Below, piece after piece: positions 11,767 through 46,576 of a stretch of 64,000 nt of DNA. Below the pieces are notes generated by a model. It was not told where the DNA came from, made no database searches, and saw only the letters and a program-made list of their open reading frames with translations. Each line of letters starts with the position of its first letter. Within the stretch, counting starts at the first letter, position 1. The translations under genes were made by a program, and so were the position numbers. The stretch is taken from assembly GCA_964478755.1 (NCBI GenBank), contig CAYZJP010000004.1:16738-80737 (forward strand). Reading direction: 5' to 3'. Source of the stretch: an uncultured Klebsiella sp. GTDB taxonomy: Bacteria; Verrucomicrobiota; Verrucomicrobiia; Limisphaerales; SXTU01.

Positions 11767-11790
11767 TTTCTGGTTGATCTTGCCTGACGC

Positions 11791-31220: not shown

Positions 31221-31232
31221 GGAGCTGAACGA

Positions 31233-31547
31233 GTGAGCACACTGAAGACTATTTGCAGGGTGGTTTGGTTCGGTATCATCGCCGAGGCAGTTGCACTGTT
31301 GGCATCGGTCGCACTCTATTCGTTGAGGCATGGACGGGAGCCGATGCAACCGCCTTTCAATTGGACTGCCACAGTGCTTCAGATGCCGGGGATATTCGTT
31401 GCCGAATGGCTGGCTGGGGCATCGACAATCTACTCGGCCTGGATCCAATGGGGTGTGATATTCTGCGTTCAGTCCCTGCTATGGAGCTGTATCGGCCTCG
31501 GGTTACTGGCATGGCGGAATAGGAAGGGTCGGAAGGCGAAAACCTAA
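31233..31547 (+). CDS. hypothetical small membrane protein
   Basis: The GTG start has a GGAG 9 nt upstream. It has three hydrophobic segments and is lower in GC. It is wedged between the DUF1553 and DUF1501 partner genes. Confidence 0.5.
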   Translation: MSTLKTICRVVWFGIIAEAVALLASVALYSLRHGREPMQPPFNWTATVLQMPGIFVAEWLAGASTIYSAWIQWGVIFCVQSLLWSCIGLGLLAWRNRKGRKAKT

Positions 31548-31560
31548 CTACAACTAAACC

Positions 31561-33033
31561 ATGCGCCCACACCACACCTTCCGCCCGCAGCCGACCCCTT
31601 GCGGACGCACACGCAGGGAATTCCTCTGGCAGGCTGGCGCGGGGTTCGCCGGACTGGGACTGCTCGACCTTCTCCTGCGCGATGGCTTCTTCTCCACCGC
31701 ACAGGCGGCGTCGCCCGCCGCCACATCCCCGCTGGCTCCGCGTGTGCCGCACTTCGCGGCGAAGGCCAAGCACGTCATCTTCCTCTTCATGAACGGTGCG
31801 CCCAGCCAGGTGGACACCTTTGACCCCAAGCCCGAGCTGGCGAAGCACCACGGGCAACCCTACGCCGGCAAGGTCAAGGCCGTCGGCTCCAATGGCCGTC
31901 CCGTGGGCTACCTCATGCAGTCACCCTTCGCCTTTCAGCCCCACGGGCAGAGCGGCCTGCCCATCAGCAGCCTGTTCCCCCACACGTCAAAGTTCGCCGA
32001 TGACCTCTGCGTGCTCCGCTCCCTCTACACGGACACGGCGGCGCACGCCTCGGGATGCCTTCAGATGAACACAGGCAGCATCTTCATCGGCAAGCCCAGC
32101 CTGGGCGCGTGGCTCAGCTATGGCCTTGGCTCCCTGAATGCCGTCCTCCCGAGCTTCGTGGTCATGACGGACCCGCGCGGCGGGCCTATCGGCAGCGCCT
32201 CGAACTGGACTGCCGGCTACATGCCCGCTGCCTATCAAGGCACGCTCTTCCGTAGCAAGGGCAGCCCGCTCCTGGACCTCTCGGCCCCGGAGGGTGTCAC
32301 CCCGCGCGGCCAGCGGCGTTCCCTTGACCTTCTCAGGGAGTTGAACGAGCAGCACCACCGTGACCGTCCGCAGGAGAGCGAGTTATCCGCGCGCATCCTC
32401 TCCTATGAGCTGGCGTATCAAATGCAGACCAGTGCGGCGGGCATCGTGGATTTGAAGGACGAACCGGCAGCCACCCGCGAGCTATACGGCCTTGACCAGC
32501 CGCTCACCGCCGACTTCGGCGCCAAGTGCCTGCTGGCCAGGCGGCTGGTGGAGAAGGGGGTGCGCTTCGTGCAGCTCTACTCAGGCGGCGGCCATCTGGA
32601 GGACACCTGGGACGGCCACAGCGATTGCACGAAGAACCACACCCTCCATGCCGGCGAGACCGACCGCCCCATAGCCGCGCTCATAACGGACCTCAAGCGG
32701 ACGGGCCTCTGGGGTGAGACGCTGCTCGTGTGGGGCGGGGAGTTCGGCCGAACGCCTACCAGTGAGGGCGTCGGCAAGCCGGGCCGCGACCATAACTGGC
32801 ACGGTTTCTCAATGTGGCTGGCCGGGGGGGGCGTGCGCGGAGGGCAGGCCATCGGGGCCACGGATGACTTGGGCTTCGAGGCGGTGGATGACCGGCACCA
32901 CGTCTCCGACCTGCACGCGACCGTCCTGCACCTCATGGGCCTCGACCACGAGAAGCTCACGTATTTCTACCAGGGCCTGGAGCAGCGCATCACCGGCGTG
33001 CGCGGGGAAGTCATCAAGCGAGCGCTGGCGTGA
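31561..33033 (+). CDS. DUF1501 domain protein (sulfatase-fold, Tat-type signal)
   Basis: Motifs are RREFLWQAGAGFAGLGLL, FLFMNGAPSQVDTFDPKPE and WGGEFGRTP...GRDHN. Confidence 0.9.
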   Translation: MRPHHTFRPQPTPCGRTRREFLWQAGAGFAGLGLLDLLLRDGFFSTAQAASPAATSPLAPRVPHFAAKAKHVIFLFMNGAPSQVDTFDPKPELAKHHGQPYAGKVKAVGSNGRPVGYLMQSPFAFQPHGQSGLPISSLFPHTSKFADDLCVLRSLYTDTAAHASGCLQMNTGSIFIGKPSLGAWLSYGLGSLNAVLPSFVVMTDPRGGPIGSASNWTAGYMPAAYQGTLFRSKGSPLLDLSAPEGVTPRGQRRSLDLLRELNEQHHRDRPQESELSARILSYELAYQMQTSAAGIVDLKDEPAATRELYGLDQPLTADFGAKCLLARRLVEKGVRFVQLYSGGGHLEDTWDGHSDCTKNHTLHAGETDRPIAALITDLKRTGLWGETLLVWGGEFGRTPTSEGVGKPGRDHNWHGFSMWLAGGGVRGGQAIGATDDLGFEAVDDRHHVSDLHATVLHLMGLDHEKLTYFYQGLEQRITGVRGEVIKRALA

Positions 33034-33080
33034 GGCGATTTTCCGTGGTGTGGTTCATGCGGGCTAAGGCGGAGGGAAGG

Positions 33081-33341
33081 TCACCAAAGTGGTGCCCATA
33101 GCTCCATGTATGCTTGCACTGGGCCTAACAGGCCGGGTGGCAAATAGTCGAACGGAAGATAAACGAGGTTGAAGGTCTTCCTGCTATCTTGATCATGATT
33201 TAGCAGCCACCAGGCAGGCCCGATGCTCAAAACGTAGAGCACGAATGCGAGCACAGCACTCATGATTAGGCGCACGTAGGAATTGCCGGAGCCGCCCGGT
33301 GCGGAGGAATCGTCGTCGCGCTCTGGCGGGGTGTGGCTCAT
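33081..33341 (-). CDS. hypothetical small membrane protein (MSHTPPERD family)
   Basis: It is an 86-aa ORF with one or two TM segments. A paralogous, frameshifted copy lies at 50241..50503, and the first 28 nt of the two are identical. Confidence 0.55.
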   Translation of the reverse strand: MSHTPPERDDDSSAPGGSGNSYVRLIMSAVLAFVLYVLSIGPAWWLLNHDQDSRKTFNLVYLPFDYLPPGLLGPVQAYMELWAPLW

Positions 33342-33401
33342 GCGGGTTGGCGCTTGAAAATAGTGCGCACGTGGCGTGGGTCAAGGCCACGGGCCGAAAA
33401 G

Positions 33402-35834
33402 TCATTCCCGCACCGTCGCGGAGAGCTTCTGCTTCAGCGCGTCCACGGCCTTCGCGTGTGCTGCGTTCACGTCGGCATCAGTCAGCGTCTTGTCAGCGGC
33501 GCGGTAGGTGAAGGCGTAGGCGAGGCTCTTCTGGCCGGCAGGGACGTTCTTGCCACGGAATATGTCGAACAGCTCCACACTCTCCAAGTTCGCGGGCTTG
33601 GCTTGCTTCACGGCCATCAAGACGGCGTCGTGCGTCGTTGCCTCTGCTACGAGCATCGCCACGTCGCGACGGCTTGCGGGGAACTGCGGCAGCGGCTTGA
33701 AGGACTTGTTTCGGTTGCCGCGCGCGAGGAGTTCGTCGAGGCGAAGTTCCGCGAGGAAGACGGCGTCGCGCAGGTCGTATTGCTTCGCGAGCGTCGGGAG
33801 AAGCTGCCCGAGTTCGCCGAGTTGGACCTTGCCGCCGAGCGTGATGGCGGCGGATTCAAGGAAGAGCGCGTTCGGCTCGGCGCGCTTGCCGAACTGCACG
33901 CCGCGCAGGCCGAAGTGCTCCAGCACATCCTCGACAAGCCCCTTCAAGTCCATCGCGTCAAACTTCGCATCGCGGTCGTCGCCGCTCCAGAAGGCGGGCG
34001 CGCGCTGGCCGGTCAGGGCGATGGCCACGCGGCGCTCCTCCTTCGGCTGGCCGTTCACGCTCGTGAACACGCGGCCCATCTCGAACAGCGCCACATCGTT
34101 GTTCTTGCGGTTCAGATTGTGCCGCAGGGAGTGGATGAGTCCCGGCAACAGCGACGGCCGCAGCACGTCCATGTCGGAACTCAGCGGGTTCGAGAGCGCT
34201 ACGACTTCTTCTGACTTCTGACTTCTGACTTCTGACTTCCCAATCAGCGTCTGCCCCTGTGCCTCGTTCAGCCCGAGGCCGGTGAGCAACCGCCGCACGG
34301 CGGCGATTTCGTCATACACGGCATCGAACGCATTAGTGCCAACCGCGCCGCGCGGGGCGGTGCTGGGAATCTTGTCCACGCCGTGCAGCCGGGCGATTTC
34401 CTCGATGAGGTCCACCTCGCGCTTGAGGTCCACGCGGAAGGTGGGGATGGAAAAGGTTGCCGATTGCGGATTGCCAGTTGCCGATTGAGTGAGGCCGAGG
34501 CTGGTCAAAAACTTCGCCTGCTGCTCCGGCGCGATGGCGAGGCCGAGCAACTCGTCGGTCTTGGCAAACCGCAGGGAAATTTCCTTCGCCTTCGCAGGCT
34601 GCGGGAAGGCATCCACCACGCCCGGCACGAGCGTGCCGCCGGCAGTTTCAAGGACGAGCTGCGCCGCGCGCTGGCTCGCGTAGTCCGCGATGCCGACATC
34701 GCAGCCGCGCTCGAAGCGGTAGCTGGACTCGCTGCGCAGGCCGAGGGCCTTGCTGGTGCGGCGGATATTCGTCGGCGCGAAGTAGGCGCTCTCGATGAGC
34801 ACATCCTTCGTGTCGTCGCGAATCTCCGTGTTCACGCCGCCCATCACGCCCGCAAGCGCAATGCCCTTCTGCTCGTCGGCGATGAGGAGCATATCGCCGG
34901 TGAGCGCGCGCTCCTGATTGTCGAGCGTCTTGAACTTCTCGTCCGCCGCCGCGCGACGGATGACGATAGTGGGTTTGCCATCCGCGCCCTTGGCGATGAG
35001 GTGATAATCGAACGCGTGCAGCGGCTGGCCAGTTTCCAGCATGACGTAGTTCGTCACGTCCACCACGTTGCTGATGCTGCGGATGCCGACCTTCTCCAAC
35101 GTCTGCCGCAGCCAGTCGGGACTCGGCCCGACCTTCACGCCCGTCACGACGCGCGCGGTGTAGCGCGGGCAAAGCTCAGATTCTTCCAAACGCACTGCGA
35201 CGTGCTCCTGAATTCCGACTCCTGACTCCTGACTTCTGACTTCAGGCACCTTCAACGGATTCCCCGTCACCGCCGCAATCTCCCGCGCGATGCCGATGAC
35301 GCTGTTCAAGTCCGGTCGGTTCGGCGTGACTTCGAGGTCATACACCACGTCGCTGCCCGCACGGCCCAGATGCTCCGCGAACGGCTGACCTACTTTCGCG
35401 TCCGGCGGCAGGATGATGATGCCGTCGCCGTCCTCGCCGAGGCCGAGTTCCTTCTTCGAGCACATCATGCCCTGGCTCACGACGCCGAAGACTTTGCGCT
35501 CCTTGATGACGAACGGCTCCTTCTCACCGGCCTTCAGCGGCAGCGCGAAGTTCGGGAGGATGAGCGCGACCTTGTCGCCCGGCTGATGGTTGGGCGCGCC
35601 GCAGATGATGGTGCGCTCGCCGGTGCCGTCGTGGACGCGGTTGACGGAGAGCTTGTCCGAGCCGGCGACCTTGTCCTTCGCGAGCACTTGCGCGACGACG
35701 ACGCCCTCGAACTCGCCGCCGAGCCGCTGCACGCCCTCGACTTCGAGACCGAGCATCGTGAGCCGCTCCGCGAGTTCCGCTGGCGACCAGTTGAAATCAA
35801 CGTATTGCTTGAGCCAGTTAAGGGTGACTTTCAT
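33402..35834 (-). CDS. pheT: phenylalanine--tRNA ligase beta subunit
   Basis: The protein starts MKVTLNWLKQYV. It has a tRNA-binding OB domain, B3/4, B5 and FDX-ACB regions, and CPRYTARV. Confidence 0.93.
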   Translation of the reverse strand: MKVTLNWLKQYVDFNWSPAELAERLTMLGLEVEGVQRLGGEFEGVVVAQVLAKDKVAGSDKLSVNRVHDGTGERTIICGAPNHQPGDKVALILPNFALPLKAGEKEPFVIKERKVFGVVSQGMMCSKKELGLGEDGDGIIILPPDAKVGQPFAEHLGRAGSDVVYDLEVTPNRPDLNSVIGIAREIAAVTGNPLKVPEVRSQESGVGIQEHVAVRLEESELCPRYTARVVTGVKVGPSPDWLRQTLEKVGIRSISNVVDVTNYVMLETGQPLHAFDYHLIAKGADGKPTIVIRRAAADEKFKTLDNQERALTGDMLLIADEQKGIALAGVMGGVNTEIRDDTKDVLIESAYFAPTNIRRTSKALGLRSESSYRFERGCDVGIADYASQRAAQLVLETAGGTLVPGVVDAFPQPAKAKEISLRFAKTDELLGLAIAPEQQAKFLTSLGLTQSATGNPQSATFSIPTFRVDLKREVDLIEEIARLHGVDKIPSTAPRGAVGTNAFDAVYDEIAAVRRLLTGLGLNEAQGQTLIGKSEVRSQKSEEVVALSNPLSSDMDVLRPSLLPGLIHSLRHNLNRKNNDVALFEMGRVFTSVNGQPKEERRVAIALTGQRAPAFWSGDDRDAKFDAMDLKGLVEDVLEHFGLRGVQFGKRAEPNALFLESAAITLGGKVQLGELGQLLPTLAKQYDLRDAVFLAELRLDELLARGNRNKSFKPLPQFPASRRDVAMLVAEATTHDAVLMAVKQAKPANLESVELFDIFRGKNVPAGQKSLAYAFTYRAADKTLTDADVNAAHAKAVDALKQKLSATVRE
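34203..34240 (-). repeat. TCTGACT x4-5 tandem heptamers (AGTCAGA on the coding strand), in frame inside pheT
   Basis: Read directly. The run encodes KSEVRSQKSEEV. Confidence 0.85.
35206..35247 (-). repeat. TCCTGAC-type heptamers x6, in frame inside pheT
   Basis: The units are TCCTGAA TTCCGAC TCCTGAC TCCTGAC TTCTGAC TTCAGGC. The run encodes PEVRSQESGVGIQE. Confidence 0.85.
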
Positions 35835-36055
35835 TTTAATTTTGAGTCCGCAAGGACGGCTTGGCTTCGGTAGGCGCTTGGATTTTCGCTGAGTCGGCCA
35901 CGTTGCACTCCAATGACGTATGCTTCGCAACACGCCGCACAAAGCCTCCGCTTGGAATCCCCGGCTCGACGAACGGATACCTGCACCGTCTTGATGGCTT
36001 CGCTCTCACAAAACCGGTTGTCGCAGTATTTCGTCTTCATCGCTTTGCAGAGCAT
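35831..36055 (-). CDS. hypothetical Cys-rich small protein (possible zinc ribbon)
   Basis: It has the pattern CDNRFC...CAACC. Its stop overlaps the pheT ATG (ATGA at 35831-35834). It starts 3 nt after the upstream ORF's stop. Confidence 0.45.
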   Translation of the reverse strand: MLCKAMKTKYCDNRFCESEAIKTVQVSVRRAGDSKRRLCAACCEAYVIGVQRGRLSENPSAYRSQAVLADSKLK

Positions 36056-36058
36056 CCT

Positions 36059-36946
36059 TCACGAAAAGCTTCCGAGAAATGCAATGGCTTCGGCACGCTT
36101 TGGGAAAGTTGCCTCAATCTTCGCTCCGGTGTTGAACCGCACTTGGATTTCAAACGCCTCGCGTTGTTCGCCGTAGTCACGCAATCGATACGACTTCCCC
36201 TCCTTGACCAAATAGGCAATCGCGCTCCGAACATCGGAGCACTCCACCGAGTGTCCGCGCAACACGGTCAGTCGAACCGAAGCCACTTGACGGTTGAGCG
36301 CGGCTTCAAGGCGCTGTTTGAAATCCGAAATCTCATGTTGGTGCAACGCATGGAGTTTCGCCAGCAGACGATTGGTCGCCTGTGGTTGTGGCAGCGATTC
36401 CCATCTCCCAATCTTTTGCCGAAACTGCCGCTCAGTTGTGCCGCCCGCGCCATCTTCAGAGGAAGCGTCAATGCCGAGTTCCCGAAACGCAGCCAGAATC
36501 GAGTCGTAAGGGATATGCAACACGCCAAAACCTTTCGATTCCAACTGATGCAGGGCGCTTCGCGTGAACTCGCCCGCCAACACCGCACCGCAGAACGGTT
36601 GATGCCGTGAGAACGTCAATGCGACGGGCATGACCGCCGCTTCGATTTCTTGCACCTTGTTCTTCGAGTGCTTCGTGTATCGTCGCCATGCCGACTCAAT
36701 GAAAGCGATGGGAACACCAAGCGCCTCTTCGGTTCCACCGCGCTCCAAGACGTAGTCGAGGTCGTGCTTGTTCCCGTAGCCGTCCTGCCAAGTCACTTTG
36801 CCTTGGCCATCCCGCGTGGCGCGTGGCCGCTTGAAGTCAAGGTAGAGCCCGTGCCGCTGCGCAACTTCGCCAAGGATGTTACGGACGAGCACTTCCAAGC
36901 TGTCGCCGATGATTTGTCCCCAACGATGAGCGAGTGATTCGGCCAT
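36059..36946 (-). CDS. hypothetical protein, candidate PD-(D/E)XK restriction endonuclease partner of the adjacent methyltransferase
   Basis: The call rests on its position 11 nt downstream of the methyltransferase, and on an N-terminal HDLDYVLE...IAFIESAWRRYTKHSK segment compatible with a D...ExK-like core. The motif is not canonical, and no other similarity was recognised. Confidence 0.45.
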   Translation of the reverse strand: MAESLAHRWGQIIGDSLEVLVRNILGEVAQRHGLYLDFKRPRATRDGQGKVTWQDGYGNKHDLDYVLERGGTEEALGVPIAFIESAWRRYTKHSKNKVQEIEAAVMPVALTFSRHQPFCGAVLAGEFTRSALHQLESKGFGVLHIPYDSILAAFRELGIDASSEDGAGGTTERQFRQKIGRWESLPQPQATNRLLAKLHALHQHEISDFKQRLEAALNRQVASVRLTVLRGHSVECSDVRSAIAYLVKEGKSYRLRDYGEQREAFEIQVRFNTGAKIEATFPKRAEAIAFLGSFS

Positions 36947-36957
36947 GATGTCTCTTG

Positions 36958-38319
36958 TTAGCCGCAGACCCAAAGATGTCCCTCGCAGAGCGGCACGCGG
37001 TGCTTACGGTTCTTCCACTTGTTGTTCCGGTCACGAAGCTTCTCGAATGTCCACGACTCAAAGCCAGCGGCCAACGCCAGCTTGCCGAGCCATTCGACGA
37101 CCGGCACGTAAACGCCATACGGCGCGGAATCGCCGATGACGAAACACACCTCGGAAGGTGATGCACACACTCGTCGCAGCGCCTTCCACGTCTGCGCCAT
37201 GTCGAGGAAGTAGCACGCGATCATGTTGTTGTAAGTCTTCTTGCCCCCACGTTCCAACCGCACTGAAGAAAGCTCGCGGCAAACCGGCACGATGTCGTCG
37301 CGGATGGGCACGAGTTCTGGCGAGGCAAGAATTTCATCCAAGTTGACGGAGTTTGGCGGGACGTGTTGCGAGCAGGCACGCACAAGATGCCGCCGCACCG
37401 TTTCTTGCAAATCCCCCCAGCCCCGGATCTCCCCCATAAAGGCCATCTCCAAACGAGTAGCATCAGCGTAGTCGTAGTTGTTTGCGTAGGGCGGCGAGGT
37501 GATGACCATCGTTGCCCATCGATCCGATACAGTCGCGCATTTGCGGGCGTCATCCGCGCGCAACTTCGCAACCGGTTTGGCATGGCGGGCCATGAAACGA
37601 ATGTCGGCGGCGATCATCTGCACTGTCTTGTGCAAAGCGACCTCAGGAGATGGGGGCACCGTTTTGCGTCGTCCTGGCAGCACGTATTGCCACGGTGCTG
37701 TGCCGGCCTCAGACACCACGCGCAGTGAAGATACGAGCGCCATCCAAAGCAGTTCGGCCTCGGGGGTGCCGTCCTGCTCCCGCTCAACAGCTTGTCGGAA
37801 GCAATCGAGGTATCTCAATGTCTCCTGCCCATAACACTTCTGGATGATTTCCGGGTAGTGCTCTGTTTCAGATTCTGCCTTCCGAGCTCGTTTGAATGCG
37901 CTGTCGGCCTTTGAATTGAAATGCCCGGAATCGGTAGTGTAACTCAACTTGGCCCGTGCAACGCGATGCACGAAGGGATGCGCCTCGATGCCAATGGACG
38001 GCACGCCCATTTCATCGCACGCAAGGCACGTTGTGCCCGAGCCGACAAACGGGTCGAGGACGCAAAGATCGCGGCCTTTACGCTCCGCCAACAACCACTT
38101 CACCCATTCCGCAGAAAAGCCCGCGCTGTAACGGAACCACCGGTGGACCGGCAGCCGCATATTGTCGAGAAAGTTGGAGGTATGGCCAACGAAGTCCAAT
38201 TTTGGGCGACCTTCTTTGACCTCGTGATCGGCTTCAAACAAGTCGAGAACGGCTTGTCTGTAATCATCGCGTAGGCGCGGAAGAACCCCATCACCTTCCT
38301 TTGGCTCTGGATATTTCAT
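36958..38319 (-). CDS. DNA methyltransferase (N6-adenine or N4-cytosine; SPPY type)
   Basis: The AdoMet motif LDPFVGSGTT lies about 170 aa before the catalytic motif ITSPPYANNYDY. An HRWFRYSAGFS segment, typical of these enzymes, is also present. Confidence 0.8.
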   Translation of the reverse strand: MKYPEPKEGDGVLPRLRDDYRQAVLDLFEADHEVKEGRPKLDFVGHTSNFLDNMRLPVHRWFRYSAGFSAEWVKWLLAERKGRDLCVLDPFVGSGTTCLACDEMGVPSIGIEAHPFVHRVARAKLSYTTDSGHFNSKADSAFKRARKAESETEHYPEIIQKCYGQETLRYLDCFRQAVEREQDGTPEAELLWMALVSSLRVVSEAGTAPWQYVLPGRRKTVPPSPEVALHKTVQMIAADIRFMARHAKPVAKLRADDARKCATVSDRWATMVITSPPYANNYDYADATRLEMAFMGEIRGWGDLQETVRRHLVRACSQHVPPNSVNLDEILASPELVPIRDDIVPVCRELSSVRLERGGKKTYNNMIACYFLDMAQTWKALRRVCASPSEVCFVIGDSAPYGVYVPVVEWLGKLALAAGFESWTFEKLRDRNNKWKNRKHRVPLCEGHLWVCG

Positions 38320-38372
38320 TGAGGAGGCAATATGCCCGTGAGTTTACTTCGCTCGCAAACAAACGCGAGTTT

Positions 38373-38448
38373 TCAGAACTGCCTCAAAAACCGCACATCA
38401 TTTTCGTAGAACAGCCGAATGTCCGTGATGCCGTAGCGGAGCGTGGCG
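38373..38448 (-). pseudogene. displaced copy of the last 24 codons plus stop of pheS
   Basis: It matches 39127-39202 at 71 of 76 nt and translates to ATLRYGITDIRLFYENDVRFLRQF*. Confidence 0.85.
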
Positions 38449-38466
38449 TTGGGTTGGTTCATCGGT

Positions 38467-38844
38467 TCAGAGCGCCCTCGCCAGCGGCATGATGTCATTG
38501 AAGTGACCATCTTTGTGCTCCAGTTCGATCTCGTGATGCACCGCGCAGGCGACGATGAGGATGTCCGCCGCCGGGATAGTCTTGCCCTTGTCGCGGCAGC
38601 GCACTGCCAATTTGTGTGCCAGTTCCCAGACTACTGATGTGGTTTCGAGGCGGGGCGCAACGGCGGAGAGATCGGCGAGCTTGCGCTTCTCCTCGGCCCC
38701 GCGAGCGCCGTTCCAAAGTTCCAGCATGACCATGTCACACCACGCGGCCTCGTCGTCCAAAACAAGCTCCTCGACCCGCTCGCCGACCTCGCTCAGGCCC
38801 GGGCGCAGGTATTCCACCCATGCGGAGGTGTCCACGAGTTTCAT
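38467..38844 (-). CDS. vapC: PIN-domain toxin VapC
   Basis: The protein starts MKLVDTSAWVEYL, with acidic PIN residues. Its ATG overlaps the vapB stop (ATGA). Confidence 0.8.
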   Translation of the reverse strand: MKLVDTSAWVEYLRPGLSEVGERVEELVLDDEAAWCDMVMLELWNGARGAEEKRKLADLSAVAPRLETTSVVWELAHKLAVRCRDKGKTIPAADILIVACAVHHEIELEHKDGHFNDIMPLARAL

Positions 38845-39065
38845 GTGGTCTTCGCCCACTTGGCATCCTCGCGCATGACCTTGAGGTCATCCTGGGTCAT
38901 GAAGTCAACGAACGTGCCCTTGATTTTTGCGTTTAACTCCCGGAGCCGCTGAAGCCGGTTAAACTTCTCCAGCGCGGTGACGACGGCGTCCCGCTTGGTC
39001 TTGGCGTTGGTCCGCTTGATGGTTTCGCGCAGCAGCTTGTCGGGAATATCAATTGTCGTCTTCAT
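38841..39065 (-). CDS. vapB: VapB-family antitoxin
   Basis: It is a 74-aa protein starting MKTTIDIPDKLLRE, typical of VapB/DUF2191-type antitoxins, and lies upstream of a PIN gene. Confidence 0.75.
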   Translation of the reverse strand: MKTTIDIPDKLLRETIKRTNAKTKRDAVVTALEKFNRLQRLRELNAKIKGTFVDFMTQDDLKVMREDAKWAKTT

Positions 39066-39087
39066 GCATCCAGTATCCGGGACATTG

Positions 39088-39116
39088 GGATTCCGTCAAA
39101 CAGCGATTTGGAATCC
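39088..39116. promoter_or_regulatory. candidate vapBC operator: GGATTCC-N15-GGAATCC
   Basis: A 7-bp inverted repeat lies 23-51 nt upstream of the vapB ATG. TA antitoxins usually autoregulate through such palindromes. This evidence is weak. Confidence 0.3.
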
Positions 39117-39126
39117 TTCTTCATCC

Positions 39127-40155
39127 TCAAAACTGCCTCAAAAACCGCACATCATTCTCGTAGAACAGCCGGATGTCGGTGATGCCGTAGCGGAGCATGG
39201 CGATGCGCTCGATGCCGAAGCCGAAGGCCCAGCCGGTCCAGACCTCGGGATCGTAGCCGACGTTCTCGAAGACTTGCGGGTGCACCATGCCGCAGCCGGC
39301 GATCTCCAGCCAGTCCTTGCCGAGCTTCTTCACGAGCGCGTTGGTGAAATCAATCTCCAGGCTCGGCTCGGTGTAGCTGAAGTAGTGCGGTCGGAAGCGG
39401 AGCTTCACGTCGCTGCCGAGCACGTCCTTGAACACGGCTTCCACAGTGCCTTTGAGGTCGCCGACGGTGACGTTCTTGTCCACATAGAGGCCCTCGATCT
39501 GGTGGAAGGTCGGGTTGTGCGTGGCGTCGGCGTTGTCGCGGCGATAAACGCGACCCGGCACGATGATGCGGATGGGCGGCGGCTGCGACTGCATCACGCG
39601 GATTTGCACGGAGGAGGTGTGCGTGCGAAGCAGTTGAGAGTTCTTAGTTGAGAGTTGAGAGCCGGAAGCTGGCGCGACGTAGAATGTGTCTTGGCTGTCG
39701 CGCGCGGGGTGGTCGGTGGGCGTATTCAGCGCATCGAAGCAGTGATACTCGTCCTCGATCTCCGGGCCGTCGGCGACGGCGAAGCCGACTTTGCGGAACG
39801 CGCGGACGATGTCGTCGGTGACTTGCGTGAGCGGATGCAAGCGGCCCACGGCGCGGCGGCGGCCGGGGAGCGTCCAGTCGGTCGGTTCCTTGGGCAGCGC
39901 GGCCTTGAGTTCGAGTTCGCTGCGACGCACGGCGAGTGCGGCTTCGAGTTCGACTTTCGCGGCGTTGATGGCTTTGCCGGCGGCGGGGCGATCTTCCTTG
40001 GGCAGCGAGCCAAGCTGCTTCATCAGCGCGGTGAACTTGCCATCACCGCCGAGGAACGCGCCTTTGGTCTGCTCCAGCGCGGGCAGGTCGGTGGCGGCGG
40101 CGAGGGCGGCGAGCGCCTCAGATTTCAAAGGGTCGAGCTGGGCCAGGAGTGACAT
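39127..40155 (-). CDS. pheS: phenylalanine--tRNA ligase alpha subunit
   Basis: Motifs are HPLTQV, DTFYV, LLRTHTSSVQIR, GRVYRRD and GFGIERIAMLRYGI. Confidence 0.93.
   Translation of the reverse strand: MSLLAQLDPLKSEALAALAAATDLPALEQTKGAFLGGDGKFTALMKQLGSLPKEDRPAAGKAINAAKVELEAALAVRRSELELKAALPKEPTDWTLPGRRRAVGRLHPLTQVTDDIVRAFRKVGFAVADGPEIEDEYHCFDALNTPTDHPARDSQDTFYVAPASGSQLSTKNSQLLRTHTSSVQIRVMQSQPPPIRIIVPGRVYRRDNADATHNPTFHQIEGLYVDKNVTVGDLKGTVEAVFKDVLGSDVKLRFRPHYFSYTEPSLEIDFTNALVKKLGKDWLEIAGCGMVHPQVFENVGYDPEVWTGWAFGFGIERIAMLRYGITDIRLFYENDVRFLRQF
39633..39660 (-). repeat. GTTGAGA-type heptamers x4 (TCTCAAC on the coding strand), in frame inside pheS
   Basis: The units are GTTGAGA GTTCTTA GTTGAGA GTTGAGA. 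The run encodes SQLSTKNSQL, just before the conserved LLRTHTS. Confidence 0.85.
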
Positions 40156-40241
40156 GACGTTGCAGGGAGTTTTATAAGAAGGGCAGGAGATAAGGAATCA
40201 AAGACTTGCGGCGAAACATCTCTTGCGCTCCTGTTTTCCTC

Positions 40242-40279
40242 AAAAAAAAACGGGCGGCCCGTCTGCGGGGCCGCCCGTC
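40242..40279 (-). terminator. intrinsic terminator between rplT and pheS
   Basis: On the minus strand the sequence is ACGGGCGGCCC-cgcagac-GGGCCGCCCGT followed by T9, giving an 11-bp perfect GC stem. Confidence 0.7.
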
Positions 40280-40300
40280 GCTTGAGGGGTTGGAACTTGG

Positions 40301-40684
40301 TCAGGCCTTCGCGAGCGTGGCGGCGGGCTTGGCCGCGAGCGCGGTCTTCGCGGCGTTGATCAGCTCGCCAAACGCGGCGGCGTCGGTGGCGGCGAGGTCG
40401 GAGAGCACCTTGCGGTCGAGGCCGATCTTGGCGGCCTTGAGACCTTCCATGAAACGGCTGTAGGTCAAACCGGCCTCGCGGACGGCGGCGTTGATGCGGA
40501 CCTGCCAGAGGCGGCGATAGATGCGCTTCTTGGTCTTGCGGTCGCGGTAGGCGTATTGCCGCGCGTGGTCAACGGCGTCGGAGGCGTAGCGGTAAAGTTT
40601 GGAACGCTTGAGACGGAAGCCTTTGGCGGCTGTCAGAATGCGTTTACGACGTTTGCGGGAGGCGGGAGCGTTAGTGACGCGCAT
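40301..40684 (-). CDS. rplT: 50S ribosomal protein L20
   Basis: The translation MRVTNAPASRKRRKRILTAAKGFRLKRSKLYR... is unmistakably L20. Confidence 0.95.
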   Translation of the reverse strand: MRVTNAPASRKRRKRILTAAKGFRLKRSKLYRYASDAVDHARQYAYRDRKTKKRIYRRLWQVRINAAVREAGLTYSRFMEGLKAAKIGLDRKVLSDLAATDAAAFGELINAAKTALAAKPAATLAKA

Positions 40685-40714
40685 GGATCAGTGAGTAGTT
40701 GAAAGTTGAACGGC

Positions 40715-40924
40715 TCAGTGGCTGAAGGGCAGGCTCGACGTGATGCGATAGGCGTCGGTCTTGGACACGAGGGAACGTTTGCCGAGGGAGCGACGACGCT
40801 TGGCGCTCTTGCCGGAGAGCAGATGGCGGCGGCCGGCGCGGGACCGGAGAATCTTCCCGGTGCCGGTGATCTTGAACCGTTTGGCGACGGATTTTTTGGT
40901 CTTAATGCCTTTGGGACGACGCAT
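40715..40924 (-). CDS. rpmI: 50S ribosomal protein L35
   Basis: The translation shows KGIKTKKSVAKRFKITGTGKILRSRAGRRHLL. Confidence 0.95.
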   Translation of the reverse strand: MRRPKGIKTKKSVAKRFKITGTGKILRSRAGRRHLLSGKSAKRRRSLGKRSLVSKTDAYRITSSLPFSH

Positions 40925-41014
40925 AAATTGAACTGGTTCTCAAAAAAGAGGGCGCACTGTAGGCAACGGACACAGGCGGTGCAAGGGGTAATTTCGCCAA
41001 TGACGAAGGCACGC

Positions 41015-41998
41015 CTACGCGCTGCCCAGCAGCGCCAGTTCCGCCCGCGTCATCTCCTCGATCAACTGCCGGAACGTGGTTGTCGGCTCCCAGTTCAGGA
41101 GGCGGCGGGCCTTGGCGGGGTTGCCTTGCAGGCGCTGCGGCTCGGCGGGACGCAGGAGGCGGTTGTCTTTGCGGACGTGCTGCCGCCAGTCGAGGTTCAT
41201 CGCGGCGAAGGCCGTCTCCACCACGTCCTGCACGCTGTGGAGCTTGCCGGTGGCGAAGATGTAATCCTCGGCCGTCGCGTGCTGGAGCGAGAGCCACATG
41301 CCACGCACGTAATCCTTGGCGAAGCCCCAGTCGCGCTTGGCGGAGGTGTCGCCGAGGAGCAGTTCCTTCTGCTGGCCGAGCTTGATGGCGGCGGCGGCGC
41401 GGCAGATTTTCCGCGTCACGAAGTTTTCGCCACGGCGCGGCGACTCATGGTTGAACATGATGCCGTTGACCGCGAAGTGCCCGAAGGTCTTGCGGTAGAT
41501 CGTGACCATCTGCGCGGCGAAGGCCTTGGCGCAGCCGTAGGGATTCACCGGCGCGAAGGGCGTGTTCTCGTCCTGTGGCATCACGGCGGGCTGGCCGAAG
41601 ATTTCCGATGACGCGGCGTGGAAGAAGCGCGGCTTGCGCCTCATGTCCTGCACCATCTCCAGCAGGCGCAGCGTGCCCATCGCGGTGAGATCGCACGTGG
41701 ACTCGGGAATCTCGAAGCTCAGGCCGACGTGCGACTGGCCAGCGAGGTGATACAGCTCGTCTGGCTCCACGGACATGAGCACGCGCCGCATCGTGGTCGG
41801 GTCGTCGAGGTCGGCGTAGTGGAGGAAGAGGCGTTGCCCGTAAATCTTCGGGTCGCGATAGAGATGGACGAGGCGCGAGCGTTCGAGCGAGCTGGTGCGG
41901 CGCACCATGCCATGGATTTCATAGCCTTTCTCCAGGAGCAATTCGCTGAGGTAGGAGCCGTCCTGGCCGGTGATGCCGGTGATGAGTGCGCGTGGCAT
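41015..41998 (-). CDS. gmd: GDP-mannose 4,6-dehydratase (copy 2)
   Basis: Motifs are [52 protein letters not shown] and [11 protein letters not shown]. Confidence 0.9.
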   Translation of the reverse strand: MPRALITGITGQDGSYLSELLLEKGYEIHGMVRRTSSLERSRLVHLYRDPKIYGQRLFLHYADLDDPTTMRRVLMSVEPDELYHLAGQSHVGLSFEIPESTCDLTAMGTLRLLEMVQDMRRKPRFFHAASSEIFGQPAVMPQDENTPFAPVNPYGCAKAFAAQMVTIYRKTFGHFAVNGIMFNHESPRRGENFVTRKICRAAAAIKLGQQKELLLGDTSAKRDWGFAKDYVRGMWLSLQHATAEDYIFATGKLHSVQDVVETAFAAMNLDWRQHVRKDNRLLRPAEPQRLQGNPAKARRLLNWEPTTTFRQLIEEMTRAELALLGSA

Positions 41999-42044
41999 GG
42001 CAAATCGTGTTTGAACGGTCGCGTCCGCGCCCAAGCTGTCGCGG

Positions 42045-43058
42045 CTACTCGGAAATTCTCACCTTGCCGGCGAGTTGATCCTGCAAGGCCTGCATGTCCG
42101 CGTCCACCATCAGCTTGGTGAGTTCCACGAACGTCGTCTTCGGCGACCAGCCGAGCTTGCGCTTCGCCTTGCCGGGATCGCCGATGAGCAAATCCACTTC
42201 CGCCGGCCGGTAATAGCGCGGGTCAATCTCAACGTGCTTCTTCCAGTCCAGCCCCGCGTGGCCGAAGGCGACTTCGAGGAACTCCCGCACCGAATGCGTC
42301 TGGCCGGTGGCGATGACATAGTCGTCCGGCTCCTGCTGCTGGAGCATGAGCCACATGGCCTCGACGTATTCCTTCGCGAAGCCCCAGTCGCGCTTCGCGT
42401 CGAGATTGCCAAGGAAGACCTTGTCCTGCCGGCCGAGTTTGATCGCCGCGACGGCGCGGGTGATCTTGCGCGTGACGAAAGTCTCGCCACGGCGCGGCGA
42501 CTCGTGGTTGAAAAGAATGCCGTTGCTGGCGTGCATGCCGTAGGACTCGCGGTAGTTCACCGTGATCCAATAGGAATAAACCTTCGCGCACGCATAGGGA
42601 CTGCGCGGATAGAAAGGCGTCGTCTCCGTTTGAGGCACCTCCATCACCTTGCCATACATCTCCGAGGACGAGGCCTGGTAAAACTTCGGCTTGATGCCGA
42701 CTTCGCGGATGGATTCGAGCAGACGGATGGTGCCTGTGCCGACGATGTCCGCCGTGTATTCCGGCGCGTCGAAGCTCACGCGCACGTGGCTCTGCGCGGC
42801 AAGGTTGTAAACCTCGTCGGGCTGCGTCTTGGAGATGAGCCGCGCCAGACCGCTGGCATCGCTGAGGTCGCCGTAGTGGAGGAAGAGCTTGTGCTTCGGC
42901 GCGTGCGGATCGGAGTAGATGTGGTCGAGCCGATGTGTGTTGAACGTGCTCGCGCGCCGGATGATGCCGTGGACTTCGTATCCTTTGCCAAGCAGCAGTT
43001 CCGCGAGATAAGAGCCGTCCTGGCCGGTAATGCCAGTAATCAACGCCTTTTTGGACAT
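42045..43058 (-). CDS. gmd: GDP-mannose 4,6-dehydratase (copy 1)
   Basis: Motifs are [54 protein letters not shown] and [11 protein letters not shown]. Confidence 0.9.
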
Positions 43059-43131
43059 ATTTGGTGTGCGGACGATGGGCCATCGTTGCACGCCGTGGCA
43101 AGAATAGAATCCAGCGGACGCCACCGCAGCG

Positions 43132-43788
43132 CTACGTCCTCACCCCGACGCGCGGGCAAAGCTCCTTCAACTCACAGCCGTCGCAGTCCGGCTTGCGCGC
43201 GTCGCACCGCCGCCGCCCGTGCCAGATCAGCCAGTGGCTGAACTGCGCCCACTGGGCGCGCGGCACGAGTTTCATCAACGCCTGCTCGATTTTTTCCGGC
43301 GTCGTCTCCTTCGTCAGCCCGAGCCGCCGCGAGAGCCGCGCGACGTGCGTGTCCACGACGACGCCCACGTTGATGCCAAACGCATTTCCCAACACCACGT
43401 TCGCCGTCTTGCGGCCCGCTCCGTCGAGCGCCGTGAGTTCCTCCATCGTGCGCGGCACCTCGCCGCCGTGGCGCTCGACAAGCTTGCGGCAGCAGGCCTG
43501 GATGTTCTTCGCCTTGTTCCGGTAAAACCCCGTGCTCCTCACCGCCAGCTCCAAGTCCGCGAGTGGCGCGTCCGCGAAGTCCTGCGCAGTGCGATAGAGC
43601 TTGAACAACTCCGCCGTGACCACGTTCACACGCTTGTCCGTGCATTGCGCCGAGAGGATCGTTGCGACCAGCAACTGCACCGGATTCGCGTGGTTCAGCT
43701 CACAATAGGCGTCCGGGTAAGTGCGCTGGAGCACGGTGATCACCTGTGCCGCGTGGCGTGCTTTTGCCTCAAATGACAAATGATTCAC
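43132..43788 (-). CDS. nth: endonuclease III
   Basis: It has an HhH-GPD region ([17 protein letters not shown]) and a 4Fe-4S cluster ([17 protein letters not shown]). The GTG at 43788 is preferred. The alternative GTG at 43845 would overlap the divergent czcC start. Confidence 0.87.
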
Positions 43789-43835
43789 GTGACATGATTT
43801 GGCCGTGCAGAATAGTGTCCGGGGCGTTCGCGTCA

Positions 43836-45311
43836 ATGCAACCACGCCGCACTGAAATCTTCCCGCGCCGGGCTGGTGATGTCCTTGCCGCAGGCCTTTC
43901 CCTCGCCCTTCTCGCCGGTTGCGCCACCTACGAGCCGAACCCGCTCGTGCCCACGGAGACGGCGGCGGCTTTCGAGAAGCGCTCGCTTGAATCGCCGGAG
44001 CTGCGGAAGTTTATTGAAGAACAATTGGGGCGCGAGTTGAACGCCTGGCCCCCGGACGCGCAAGCACCGGGCTGGACGCTGAACTTGCTGACGCTGGCCG
44101 CTTACTACTACCAGCCTTCGCTCGACGTCGCCCGCGCGAACTGGGCGGAAACCCGCGCGGCGCTGATTACCGCCGGCGGCCGGCCAAATCCAATCGTCGG
44201 CATTCAGCCCGGATACAATTTCAACCCCGCCGCCGGCGCGCTTTCGCCGTGGATTCCCGGCGCCACGATTGACTTGCCGATTGAAACCGCTGGCAAACGT
44301 GGGTATCGCGTGACGCACGCCCGTCAGCTTGCCGCGGCCGCCCGCTGGCAACTCGCTGGCGTCGCGTGGCAGGTGCGCGCAGGCGTCCGCGACGCCTTAC
44401 TTAATTTCAGCGACGCGATGCGGCGCGAGGAATTGCTGGGCGAACAATTTCGTCTGCAGGAACAGTGGGTCGCGCGCTTGCAGCAGCGCGTCGAGGCGGG
44501 CGCGATTCCGCGCGCCGATGTCACGCCCGCGAAGATTACCTTGGAAAAGCTGCGGCTCGAAGTCGCCGGCCTGCGCCAGCTCAAGGGCGAATCCACTGTG
44601 CGACTCGCCGAGGCCGTCGGCATTTCTGTCGCCGCTTTGAATCAAGCAAAAGGCATCGCGCTCGCCTGGAACTTCCCTGTGGCGACAAAACTCACCTCCG
44701 AGGCCGCGCGCCAGCGTGCCTTAACGCATCGCACCGATGTCGCCGCCACGCTCGCCGAATACGAGGCCGCGCAGACCGCGCTCCAGCTTGAAATCGCCAA
44801 GCAATATCCCGACGTGCATCTTGGCACGGGCTACCAGTGGGATCAGGGCGAAAGCAAATGGTCGTTCCCCAACCTCTCCGCCGAGCTGCCCTTGCTCAAC
44901 CGCAATCAGGGTCCCATCGCCGAAGCGCAAGCGCGCCGCGCCACGGCCGCCGTGCGCGTGGAAGCGGCGCAGGCCAAGGCCATCACGGAAATTGATGCCG
45001 CGCTGGCGGCGCACCAAGCCGCGCGTGGACGGCTCGGCACGATGGAGCTTTTGGCCGCCGAGCAGGAAAAACAGGCGGCCGCCATCGAGGCGCAGGCCCG
45101 CGCCGGCGCGTTGGACGGACTCGACTTGATCTCCGCGAAGATTGAGCTGGCGCAACTTCATCTCGCACAATGGGACGCCGGGGTGAAGGCGTTGCAAGCG
45201 GCGGGCCGCCTCGAGGACGCGCTGCAAACGCCACTCGAATCGGAATCCACCGCCGCGGCACCGGGCAACTTCATCGAGACAAATCCGCGCACCCAAAAGC
45301 AGCAGCCATGA
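43836..45311 (+). CDS. TolC/CzcC-family outer-membrane efflux protein
   Basis: It has a lipobox (LLAGC) and two OEP repeats with the typical coiled helices. It is first in the operon with the MFP and CzcA-like pump. Confidence 0.8.
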   Translation: MQPRRTEIFPRRAGDVLAAGLSLALLAGCATYEPNPLVPTETAAAFEKRSLESPELRKFIEEQLGRELNAWPPDAQAPGWTLNLLTLAAYYYQPSLDVARANWAETRAALITAGGRPNPIVGIQPGYNFNPAAGALSPWIPGATIDLPIETAGKRGYRVTHARQLAAAARWQLAGVAWQVRAGVRDALLNFSDAMRREELLGEQFRLQEQWVARLQQRVEAGAIPRADVTPAKITLEKLRLEVAGLRQLKGESTVRLAEAVGISVAALNQAKGIALAWNFPVATKLTSEAARQRALTHRTDVAATLAEYEAAQTALQLEIAKQYPDVHLGTGYQWDQGESKWSFPNLSAELPLLNRNQGPIAEAQARRATAAVRVEAAQAKAITEIDAALAAHQAARGRLGTMELLAAEQEKQAAAIEAQARAGALDGLDLISAKIELAQLHLAQWDAGVKALQAAGRLEDALQTPLESESTAAAPGNFIETNPRTQKQQP

Positions 45312-46576
45312 ACGCGATCAAACTCATCCTGTTCGCAACTTGCCTCGCGCTCGCCGCGTGCAAGCCACCCGAAAACACGCCTGCCGAAAAGAAAGAGCCG
45401 GAGAAGTCGTCGCCCGTCTCGCACAACGACAAGGGCGAGACGGTCATCAAACTCGATGCCGAAGCATTGAAGCGCGCCGACGTGAAGACGGAGCCGCTCG
45501 CGGCGGCGGACTTCAGCCCGGAGACGAAGGGCTTTGGTCGCGTGCTCGACCCAGCTCCACTCGTCGCGCTCGTGAGCGAACTCGCCGCAGCGCATTTGAC
45601 CGTCGAAAATTCGCGCCGCGAACTCGAACTCGCGCACAAGCGCCGCGAGAGCGAACTCGCCCTTGCCCGCGCCACGTTGAAACTCGACGAGGACACTGTG
45701 CGACTCACCAAAGCGCAGAGCGCGGCAGAACTCGCCGCCGCCGAGGCCGCGGTGAAAGCATCGTCGCTCGAACTCGAACGCACGAGGACGCTCGCCAAGC
45801 AGAACAACGTCTCCGAACGCGCGCTTCAAGCCGCCGAAGCCACCGCGACGAAGGACAAGGTGGGCATTGAAACCGCGAAGCTCGGCGGCGCACGTGCGAC
45901 TGGCGCTGCTGAACTCGCCGCGCAGAAGGACCGCCTGCAGCTCGACCTCGCTGACGCCACGACTGCACGTGTTGTGCAGACTGCGGAAGCCGCGGTTCAG
46001 CGCGATGAAGTCGCCGCCGGAGCCACGCGTGCGAAGCTCGCCACGGCTTACGGGCGGATGCTCCTCGACCACCCGAACCTCGTCGAGTTCGCGCACTCGC
46101 TCGTCGCCGGCCAGACCGCACTCGTGCGGTTGGACGTGCCCGCCGGCGAACCGCTCAAGGCTGCGCCGCTCGGCGCGAAGCTCATCGCGCCGTCGGACGC
46201 AGGCGAAGTCATCGCCGCGCAGTTGCTCGGTCCGGCGACAACCTCGGACGCGCAGACACAAGGACAAGGTTTTCTCCTGCTCGTGAAATCAGAAGCCGCC
46301 CGGCTCGCCGCTGGCACGATGATTACGGGCTTTCTCCGATTGCCCGGCGAGCTGGAGCACGGCGTCACCGTGCCGCGCGCGGCGATTGTGCGCCACGAAG
46401 GCGAGGCGTTCATCTACATCGCGACCAAGGACGACGAGTTCACGAAGAAAGAAATCGAGCTGGAGCACGCGACCGAGGCCGGATGGTTCGTTCGCGAGGG
46501 CTTGAAGGTCGGAGAGAAAATCGTCGTCGTCGGCGCGCAGCAACTGTTGTCTGAGGAATCGAAAGGAAAGGACTAA
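45308..46576 (+). CDS. efflux RND periplasmic adaptor (CzcB/CusB-like)
   Basis: The ATG overlaps the upstream stop (ATGA). It has a lipobox (LALAAC), a long alpha-hairpin, and a beta-barrel C-terminus. Confidence 0.8.
   Translation: MNAIKLILFATCLALAACKPPENTPAEKKEPEKSSPVSHNDKGETVIKLDAEALKRADVKTEPLAAADFSPETKGFGRVLDPAPLVALVSELAAAHLTVENSRRELELAHKRRESELALARATLKLDEDTVRLTKAQSAAELAAAEAAVKASSLELERTRTLAKQNNVSERALQAAEATATKDKVGIETAKLGGARATGAAELAAQKDRLQLDLADATTARVVQTAEAAVQRDEVAAGATRAKLATAYGRMLLDHPNLVEFAHSLVAGQTALVRLDVPAGEPLKAAPLGAKLIAPSDAGEVIAAQLLGPATTSDAQTQGQGFLLLVKSEAARLAAGTMITGFLRLPGELEHGVTVPRAAIVRHEGEAFIYIATKDDEFTKKEIELEHATEAGWFVREGLKVGEKIVVVGAQQLLSEESKGKD

Follow-up and report, generated by a model that had tools for sequence, protein, structure and literature searches.

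Introduction

Gene ends serve as insertion sites for more than one kind of element; SXT, for instance, integrates at the 5' end of prfC. Integrative elements such as ICESt1 and ICESt3, at the 3' end of fda, insert at one end of a protein gene and leave it whole, and cis-mobilizable elements (CIMEs) are decayed derivatives of such elements (PMC5704250); the integrases acting at the 5' end of dusA represent the mirror case (PMC4482086). Insertion with long target duplication was defined for restriction-modification (R-M) systems that have no mobility gene at all and are flanked by long target duplications of variable length (Nobusato et al. 2000; Furuta, Abe and Kobayashi 2010, PMC2853133). For a non-replicating molecule with a single block of homology, most E. 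coli integrants proved to be single crossovers of recircularised fragments, which left gene-end duplications of 109-950 bp (Amarir-Bouhram et al. 2011, PMC3240628). Here we analyse a stretch of 64,000 nucleotides (nt) of contig CAYZJP010000004.1 (assembly GCA_964478755.1), hereafter the window, in which a toxin-antitoxin (TA) cassette, vapBC, lies between pheS and pheT, the genes of the two subunits of phenylalanyl-tRNA synthetase, and is bracketed by a 76-nt direct repeat of the pheS 3' end.

As in insertion with long target duplication, the vapBC cassette is a small selfish unit without a mobility gene, its direct repeats are variable, longer than 30 bp and often overlap the 3' end of a gene, and they align with a single copy in relatives with an empty site (here 76 nt, against loci L002, L010 and L051). 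Unlike the described R-M cases, the cargo is a TA pair (with type II R-M systems sharing the hotspot), the site lies within an essential operon, cassettes can form arrays, the host is verrucomicrobial, and the copies of the repeat resemble two alleles with separate ancestries, not a newly made duplication. It is doubtful that both copies derive from the target. Long target duplication has been described mostly for R-M systems in Proteobacteria, and the present case adds TA cassettes, arrays and the Verrucomicrobiota to its range.

With CIMEs and other gene-end elements the locus shares a duplicated gene end, an intact gene, tandem accretion at one site and the possibility of cargo without a recombinase. 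Unlike them, it shows no matching integrase in 72 occupied sites, the length of the repeat is variable, and other genes have had their own ends duplicated around the same cassette family. Its anatomy agrees with that of a long target duplication and with that of a CIME, but the recombinase that belongs to the latter was not seen in the 72 sites. Campbell-type single crossover and homology-facilitated illegitimate recombination likewise involve one stretch of homology, a direct duplication and no specialised enzyme; they are known from plasmid experiments in E. coli, whereas our material is comparative anatomy.

A further parallel is cDHS1 of Pseudomonas aeruginosa, a defence hotspot flanked by core genes and adjoining pheS/pheT/rplT (PMC10250203), where variable defence and addiction systems also occupy a fixed place set by conserved translation genes. 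The Pseudomonas hotspot lies beside the operon, near a tRNA gene, whereas the cassettes studied here separate pheS from pheT, share their orientation and are accompanied by gene-end fossils. In the literature on pheS/pheT with toxin-antitoxin systems and direct repeats, we found no description of a hotspot at the pheS-pheT junction.

The repeat around vapBC

Realignment confirmed the repeat as the earlier note on this DNA had described it, with 71 of 76 nt identical, abrupt ends, one Met/Thr change and four silent changes. Weak similarity extends to 79 nt, and a match of this quality would be expected by chance at about 1e-25 (our own estimate). Each copy terminates in TGA, where the similarity stops (TGAaaac vs TGAggat), and the other edge falls just upstream of a GCC (Ala) codon, 24 codons before the stop. 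Of the five differences, one affects a second codon position (ATG/ACG) and four affect third positions (ACC/ACG, ATC/ATT, GAG/GAA and TTT/TTC). One copy is the genuine 3' end of a full-length pheS, while the other has no pheS body and is referred to below as the fossil; it sits within an open reading frame (ORF) of 29 codons (38373-38462), whose ATG follows the vapC stop by 4 nt.

The order of genes on the minus strand is rpmI-rplT-pheS-[vapB-vapC]-pheS tail fossil-[type II methylase-restriction enzyme-small Cys ORF]-pheT (table 1). As a correction to the earlier description, the place after the remnant is taken not by pheT but by a second cassette, made up of a type II R-M system and a small ORF, which reaches exactly to the pheT start codon. 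The closest relatives have only 20-24 nt in the place of the whole insert.

The edge of the repeat is not a conservation edge of pheS, whose final 240 nt are evenly conserved. The only other long direct repeats in the window belong to dehydratase paralogues (296 nt at 72% and 99 nt at 75%); two adjacent paralogous genes resembling GDP-mannose dehydratase lie at 41015-43124.

A recurrent hotspot between pheS and pheT

A PheS scan of species-representative genomes returned 80 loci, nearly all from metagenome-assembled genomes (MAGs) of Limisphaerales/Pedosphaera (Verrucomicrobiota). Counted with the window, 57 loci hold both pheS and pheT. The junction is empty in 10 of the 57, with the two genes 16-54 nt apart; among these are the close relatives L002, L010 and L051, which have a single pheS tail, a 20-nt spacer and then pheT. 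The remaining 47 junctions are occupied by inserts of 0.7-8 kb. One or more extra pheS tails are present in 16/57 loci and extra pheT 5' ends in 5/57, and no pheS-tail fossil is detectable in 31 of the 47 occupied loci.

Tail fossils stand behind at least seven kinds of cargo, namely three subtypes of the vapBC family of the window, hicAB, an AbiEii-like nucleotidyltransferase and its small partner, a PIN toxin paired with an AbrB-type VapB, a PIN-like protein paired with one of 62 aa, a beta-carbonic anhydrase and a lone ORF of 69 aa. In L001, a related vapBC is followed by a tail, the native 20-nt spacer and pheT, whereas L081 carries another cassette beyond its fossil; the same fossil as in the window is found in L001, L081 and L108-L111. 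Locus L021 has three cassettes in tandem, each closing with a pheS tail (11056-13315: a nucleotidyltransferase pair, AbrB-PIN and vapBC), and there the decay of the fossils grows with distance from pheS. A scan of metagenomes with the VapC alignment added 80 further loci, of which L081 is the closest, and most of those with sufficient flank lie between pheS and pheT; the tail-fossil architecture recurs in dozens of MAGs and metagenome contigs of unrelated studies.

The empty junctions of L002, L010 and L051 and the related vapBC at the same place in L001 and L081 bear out the earlier proposal of an insertion at the pheS 3' end, and the search that it had recommended, for empty sites and other pheS-associated cassettes, yielded both, with many cassettes. 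The window locus exemplifies an insertion hotspot, free of recombinases, that recurs across an order of Verrucomicrobia and takes up addiction and defence genes.

Several of the public MAG records concerned (L001, L008, L011, L015, L020, L035, L036, L047 and L073) are titled Akkermansia muciniphila, Klebsiella sp., Bifidobacterium or Bifidobacteriaceae. Being verrucomicrobial by their pheS locus, they are evidently mislabelled bins.

Hotspot cargo and the search for a recombinase

The cargo was surveyed through 56 representative ORFs from 72 occupied junctions. They matched PIN, HicAB-like, AbiEii-like, Mrr, GmrSD and HNH families, XhoI-family and other type II R-M enzymes, an Eco57I-like methylase, Abi_alpha, HEPN, ORF6N, carbonic anhydrase and PAP2/phosphodiesterase, and cargo families beyond these all had E values above 6e-14. 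No integrase, resolvase or transposase family was among the strong matches in the 72 junctions (the survey covered junctions, not whole genomes), and none of the ten largest unassigned cargo ORFs, scanned individually, proved to be a recombinase. In the window itself, the insert holds vapB, vapC, the methyltransferase, the restriction endonuclease and the small ORF, and no mobility gene. The suggestion that a mobilising recombinase acts in trans or has been lost found no sign of a dedicated enzyme in its favour, with none in the 72 junctions, no viral contig that bears the pheS tail and neither a tRNA nor an attC-like fold at the repeat.

Other known kinds of element fit the repeat poorly. No inverted repeats were found in the pheS tail, and both strands of both copies fold no better than shuffled sequences (z from -0.05 to +1.05); without an attC-like hairpin, we rejected an integron gene cassette. 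A transposon or insertion sequence was rejected as well, as we found no terminal inverted repeats, short target duplication or transposase. There is no tRNA or tmRNA gene in 30000-46000 and no Rfam family in 33000-42000, so that a tRNA, tmRNA or known RNA was dismissed as the true target. A phage or provirus bearing the pheS tail as its attP was likewise set aside, since no viral contig matched the tail.

Duplicated ends of other genes and the edges of the fossils

Duplication is not confined to pheS. Fossils of the pheT head, made of the first 91 nt of the gene and ending in ...GGCCTCG, are present in L015, L027, L049 and L080, and pheT-head fossils precede at least three different sequences. 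Between cassettes of L011, a decayed pheS tail is separated by just two bases from a pheT head; this pair is the native junction, stranded by insertions on both sides.

At least 12 relatives of the vapBC cassette have long flanks away from pheS and no pheS tail, and a flanking repeat is absent at 22 of 24 other loci of the family. At the remaining two, the architecture reappears with other genes. In L146 (480-1430), the repeat around the cassette consists of 123 nt from the 3' end of a nucleotidyltransferase-like gene, with 7 of 9 differences synonymous and the ATG of the fossil overlapping the vapC stop, and in L158 (4940-5830) it consists of 56 nt from the 3' end of an rsmA/ksgA-like gene. 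As the same vapBC family repeats the architecture at other genes, the process is not tied to one attachment site. Nor is pheS the sole target, given the duplicated pheT 5' ends and the 3' ends of two unrelated genes around the same vapBC family. At pheS, the length of the repeat ranges from 43 to more than 130 nt.

Upstream of several cassettes located outside pheS, we noted a stretch resembling the last pheS codons (..CAATTYTAG before GATTCC), which hints that these cassettes may once have sat at pheS.

The left edges of the fossils cluster: 32 of 49 tail fossils begin 69-83 nt upstream of the stop codon, and the pheT-head fossils of four loci all stop at +91. Such clustering may reflect a preferred break or recognition site, common descent from one old fossil whose cargo has since changed, or selection. 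The tail fossils that are best preserved begin at the CGA of a TCGA located 80-83 nt before the pheS stop (about 39209-39212 in the window), and the edges of the head fossils fall at TCG within CTCGAG, at pheT +89..+92 (about 35743-35746). A restriction enzyme of the XhoI family is among the cargo of the hotspot (L016); the match of the edges to TCGA may be a coincidence.

Ancestry of the two tails

At all five differing sites, the functional copy of the window agrees with L002, the nearest empty-site relative. Three of the differences are private to the fossil (one non-synonymous and two synonymous), another (ACG, 49 nt before the stop) is common to the fossils of the window, L001, L081 and L108, and the last is homoplastic. 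Taken alone, these differences are compatible with neutral decay, and the synonymous bias dissolves. The functional copy looks native from this comparison; if either copy were foreign, it would be the remnant rather than the functional end. A sliding-window comparison showed that the functional tail is no outlier against close relatives, its 10 differences per 72 nt comparing with 2-14 elsewhere in the gene. Both copies bear residues typical of the host clade.

A different picture emerged when 19 fossils were compared, by codon position, with the functional tail of their own genome. Differences numbered 27/18/76 at positions 1/2/3, and the differing codons were synonymous in 66 cases and non-synonymous in 33. 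Against the consensus of functional tails, the functional copies themselves show 18/20/97 differences and the fossils 30/35/116; the excess of the fossils is flat across positions (12/15/19) and corresponds to about 2.7% of neutral decay. Between the two tails of one genome, the third-position difference is about 17%, as large as between species. Third positions make up 63% of the differences, whereas duplication in situ followed by decay predicts about 45% (z about 3-4, and less once related loci are allowed for). Since third-position divergence is of between-species size while decay amounts to only about 2-3%, the tails are best seen as functional-type alleles of different ancestry, one of which appears to have been retired recently.

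These results bear on two ideas of the earlier note. Its proposal of a replacement 3' end from a different lineage holds in part, in that mixed ancestry is supported by the 19 pooled fossils, whereas in the window it is the functional end that carries the L002 alleles. Its argument that the repeat is not a simple duplication in decay is upheld by the pooled data, in which differences are non-random by codon position and the excess of the fossils is flat; the synonymous bias on which it was built is real in the larger sample, whereas the five differences of the window fit neutral decay.

Signs of decay are visible in several fossils, including residue changes never seen in functional PheS, loss of the stop (L094, L097 and L119), indels (L101) and, in the window, ACG in place of the Met codon. 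The nearly identical genomes L001, L108, L109 and L111 differ solely in the 3' half of the fossil, where one of them matches its own functional copy, which points to a recent exchange between copies or to chimeric assembly. The functional tail of the window (WIN_F) has 2 differences in 72 nt from the L081 fossil and 9 from the functional tail of L081 (L081_F). In a regression of tail distances, FF was about 0.58 host + 0.12 cassette and RR about 0.48 host + 0.30 cassette, both weak and ambiguous; the distances of both copies follow the host more than the cassette. As to which copy was imported, the tail distances are ambiguous.

Mechanism of insertion

We favour, with about even confidence, the view that the repeat is the scar of homology-anchored general recombination, which would have inserted vapBC at the pheS-pheT junction with no need for a dedicated recombinase. 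DNA in which a pheS 3' end is joined to a cassette would recombine with the resident copy of that end, whose high conservation would make it a homologous anchor. This could happen either by a Campbell-type single crossover of a circularised fragment or by a one-ended homologous exchange closed by an illegitimate join. In both cases, pheS would remain intact and a bodiless tail would be left behind the cassette as a slowly decaying fossil, and the same process anchored on pheT would leave pheT-head fossils. Repeats of 76 nt would also permit precise loss of the cassette by homologous recombination, and the flanking essential genes would permit its transfer between relatives.

The anatomy of the locus and how often it recurs, the empty junctions, the differing origins of the tails and the missing recombinase genes are direct results; the route itself we infer from comparative anatomy only. 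Mixed ancestry of the tails fits every route of import, whether by a site-specific enzyme, by a Campbell single crossover or by one-ended exchange with an illegitimate join. The recombinase-free routes are favoured because the occupied sites hold no recombinase gene, the repeat varies in length, several genes serve as targets and pheT offers the mirror image.

Some observations weigh against homology-anchored recombination. Random ends would scatter more than the clustered edges of the fossils do, and a Campbell-type crossover does not predict such clustering; the cassette ends are also sharp, at the pheS stop and at the vapC stop. No excised circle or empty allele was found in the assembled contigs of the source runs; when four public runs were compared over 35500-40500, the assembled contigs of the two that hold the sequence contained no credible joint skipping the cassette. 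Arguments based on fine-scale alleles are weakened by the chance of chimeric MAG assembly across so conserved a 76-nt repeat, and the model does not explain the first arrival of a cassette beside pheS.

The cassettes are probably read through and translationally chained with pheST, because no terminator-like sites other than weak intragenic ones were found between pheS and pheT, and gene starts trail the preceding stops by a few bases throughout, the first gene of most cassettes starting 1-15 nt after the stop of the tail.

If homology-anchored recombination is the process at work, small selfish modules such as TA, type II R-M, Mrr/GmrSD and Abi/HEPN systems could colonise the interior of an essential operon without a mobility gene, and conserved ends of essential genes would serve as recombination handles, leaving gene-end fossils that can be dated. 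The more than 50 independent junctions form a natural set in which to separate target duplication, homology-anchored recombination and hidden site-specific activity, and the pheS-pheT junction becomes a predictable place to mine for defence systems in this order.

A true long target duplication, unlikely in our assessment, would start from a staggered or processed double-strand break in pheS that was filled in around the cassette; the tails would at first have been identical host copies, and the synonymous differences would stem from later replacement of the pheS allele. Such a model was proposed for R-M systems (PMC2853133), and it would account for the host-clade residues in both tails of the window. 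The position of tail edges at the CGA of TCGA and of head edges at the TCG in CTCGAG also agrees with it, as do the XhoI-family enzyme in the cargo and the strong avoidance of CTCGAG in the window. On the other hand, TCGA itself is not avoided, neither the L146 nor the L158 junction has such a motif, and the match to TCGA was noticed post hoc, with a probability of about 0.5% by chance according to our estimate. Moreover, third-position divergence of between-species size with only about 2-3% decay demands an extra step, the wholesale replacement of one copy.

Site-specific integration seems to us similarly improbable. Here the unit would be a CIME-like cis-mobilizable cassette with the pheS tails as attL and attR and its integrase in trans, and arrays would grow by repeated integration at the pheS-proximal site. 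Accretion at an att site (as defined in PMC5704250) would explain direct repeats at gene 3' ends, tandem arrays such as that of L021 and the clustered edges. In addition, the type of stop codon tracks the downstream cassette (for example, TAG followed by a GATTCC leader), and the 8-mer CCATGCTC lies at the inner edge of both kinds of repeat. These features have to be set against the lack of an integrase, resolvase or transposase in the 72 junctions and of a viral contig with the tail, against the span of repeat lengths and the repeat's want of inverted binding sites or folds, and against the 123 nt and 56 nt of two other genes around the same vapBC family, which would be unexpected of one att-specific enzyme.

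It is doubtful that selection has kept the fossil as a translated mini-ORF passing ribosomes from the last gene of the cassette to the gene that follows or to pheT, in the manner of the native pheS end. None of the 19 compared fossils has a frameshift or an in-frame stop, and in several loci the ATG of the fossil either overlaps the upstream stop (TTATGA in L018, L027, L058 and L146) or follows it by 4 nt (the window, L001 and L081). The short distance from the tail stop to the first gene of most cassettes and the overlap of the small-ORF TGA with the pheT ATG fit the same scheme, and between orthologous fossils positions 1 and 2 show only about a third of the difference to be expected from third-position divergence. 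The signs of decay described above, including lost stops and indels, nevertheless speak against it, coupling needs an open frame alone and not a conserved peptide, and 31 of the 47 occupied loci do without a detectable pheS-tail fossil.

An equally doubtful extension is that tail and head fossils are working parts of a native cassette system, in which the translated essential-gene end of each cassette would plug into the pheST coupling chain and a preferred site of breakage or recognition, TCGA (80-83 nt ahead of the pheS stop codon) or CTCGAG (+88 of pheT), would direct insertion. If true, the junction would be an integron-like platform within an essential operon that takes up addiction and defence genes without a recombinase.

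That the second tail merely represents mis-joined reads of co-occurring strains, as a metagenomic source and a tail highly conserved among co-occurring relatives might suggest, is extremely improbable, because independent Logan contigs of two public rock-metagenome runs span both copies and the cassette with zero differences, so that the structure is not a one-off assembly artefact, and because dozens of MAGs and contigs of unrelated studies share the same architecture.

Features of the locus

Table 1. Genes, repeat copies and insert at the pheS-pheT locus of the window (positions in the window)
Feature	Position	Strand	Evidence or remark
rpmI	40715-40924	-	
rplT	40301-40684	-	
pheS, phenylalanyl-tRNA synthetase alpha subunit, complete, 342 aa	39127..40155	-	Pfam tRNA-synt_2d 3.4e-98, Phe_tRNA-synt_N
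Functional repeat copy, final 24 pheS codons and TGA	39127..39202	-	
vapBC leader	39066..39126	-	leader kept in L001, L081
vapB antitoxin, 74 aa	38841..39065	-	Pfam VapB_antitoxin (PF09957) 1.4e-08
vapC PIN-domain toxin	38467..38859	-	Pfam PIN 2e-10; NCBIfam TA_toxin_VapC 1.2e-19 (70.7 bits, below the model's curated cutoff of 80)
pheS tail fossil, second repeat copy, without pheS body	38373..38448	-	repeat alignment
Type II DNA methyltransferase	36958..38319	-	PADLOC MTase_II 1.9e-128, Pfam N6_N4_Mtase
Type II restriction endonuclease	36059..36973	-	PADLOC REase_II 4e-56; overlaps end of methylase gene
Small Cys-rich ORF, 74 aa	35831..36055	-	ORF list; kept in L012
pheT, beta subunit, start MKVTLNWLKQ	33402..35834	-	Pfam B3_4, tRNA_synthFbeta, FDX-ACB, B5, tRNA_bind
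Whole insert, pheS stop to pheT start: two cassettes and fossil	35835..39126	-	

According to the ORF list and the Pfam scan, all genes across 33402-40924 lie on the minus strand; the start of pheT was set by comparison across the 57 loci. PheS of the window is 92-96% identical to PheS of Limisphaerales MAGs. The G+C content of the insert is 0.51-0.63 (mostly 0.54-0.60), against 0.58-0.69 (mostly 0.60-0.69) in the flanks.

The first cassette, with its small antitoxin gene overlapping the gene of a PIN toxin that keeps the conserved acidic residues, appears to be a VapBC type II TA system. Residues D10, E47, D99 and D117 of VapC are invariant in the VapC alignment (A1). The vapC ORF opens at a GTG (38859), while the likely start is the ATG at 38844, which overlaps the vapB stop as ATGA. 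VapB, VapC and PheS of the window are, respectively, 95%, 87% and 93% identical to their counterparts in L081. The leader contains the sole promoter-like site of 35700-40300, which resembles a sigma-70 promoter (TTGACG at 39099-39094, a 16-nt spacer and GATACT at 39077-39072), and an inverted repeat (GGATTCC, 39116-39110, and GGAATCC, 39094-39088) that is likely to be the VapB operator, a role we infer.

The second cassette starts 53 nt upstream of the methyltransferase gene, and the adjacent methyltransferase and endonuclease, matching type II models, identify it as a putative type II R-M system. The same combination of methylase, restriction enzyme and small ORF occurs in L012 with 78% nt identity, and that locus carries hicAB where the window has vapBC. 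The restriction endonuclease had no Pfam match. The TGA of the small ORF overlaps the pheT ATG (ATGA), and its product has a zinc-ribbon-like motif (CDNRFC...CAAC); this 74-aa ORF matched no family in Pfam, NCBIfam or PADLOC, and it may encode a controller protein.

In the window (1-64000), GTAC is wholly absent (0 found, 75 expected), and CTAG (0.33) and GATC (0.43) are depleted. Palindromes of the form NTCGAN' are also depleted, with 9 CTCGAG observed vs 63 expected, 0 GTCGAC vs 20, 3 TTCGAA vs 21 and 2 ATCGAT vs 7, while TCGA itself is at expectation. Such depletions suggest that this DNA was long exposed to RsaI-like and XhoI/SalI/BstBI/ClaI-like restriction.

Between rplT and pheS, the gap of 145 nt contains a strong intrinsic terminator on the minus strand (40249-40279), which combines a 12-bp G+C-rich stem with a run of T. 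It is a candidate pheS leader or attenuator, or else the terminator of rplT, and it matches no Rfam family.

Tandem heptamer arrays of the GTTGAGA type (11 vs 1.2 expected) are found at 39633-39661, 4208-4286, 30510-30531 and 40698-40712. The array within pheS coincides with an in-frame insertion of eight codons (..SGSQLSTKNSQ..), which is present in the window, L001, L002 and L010 and absent from L003 and L012.

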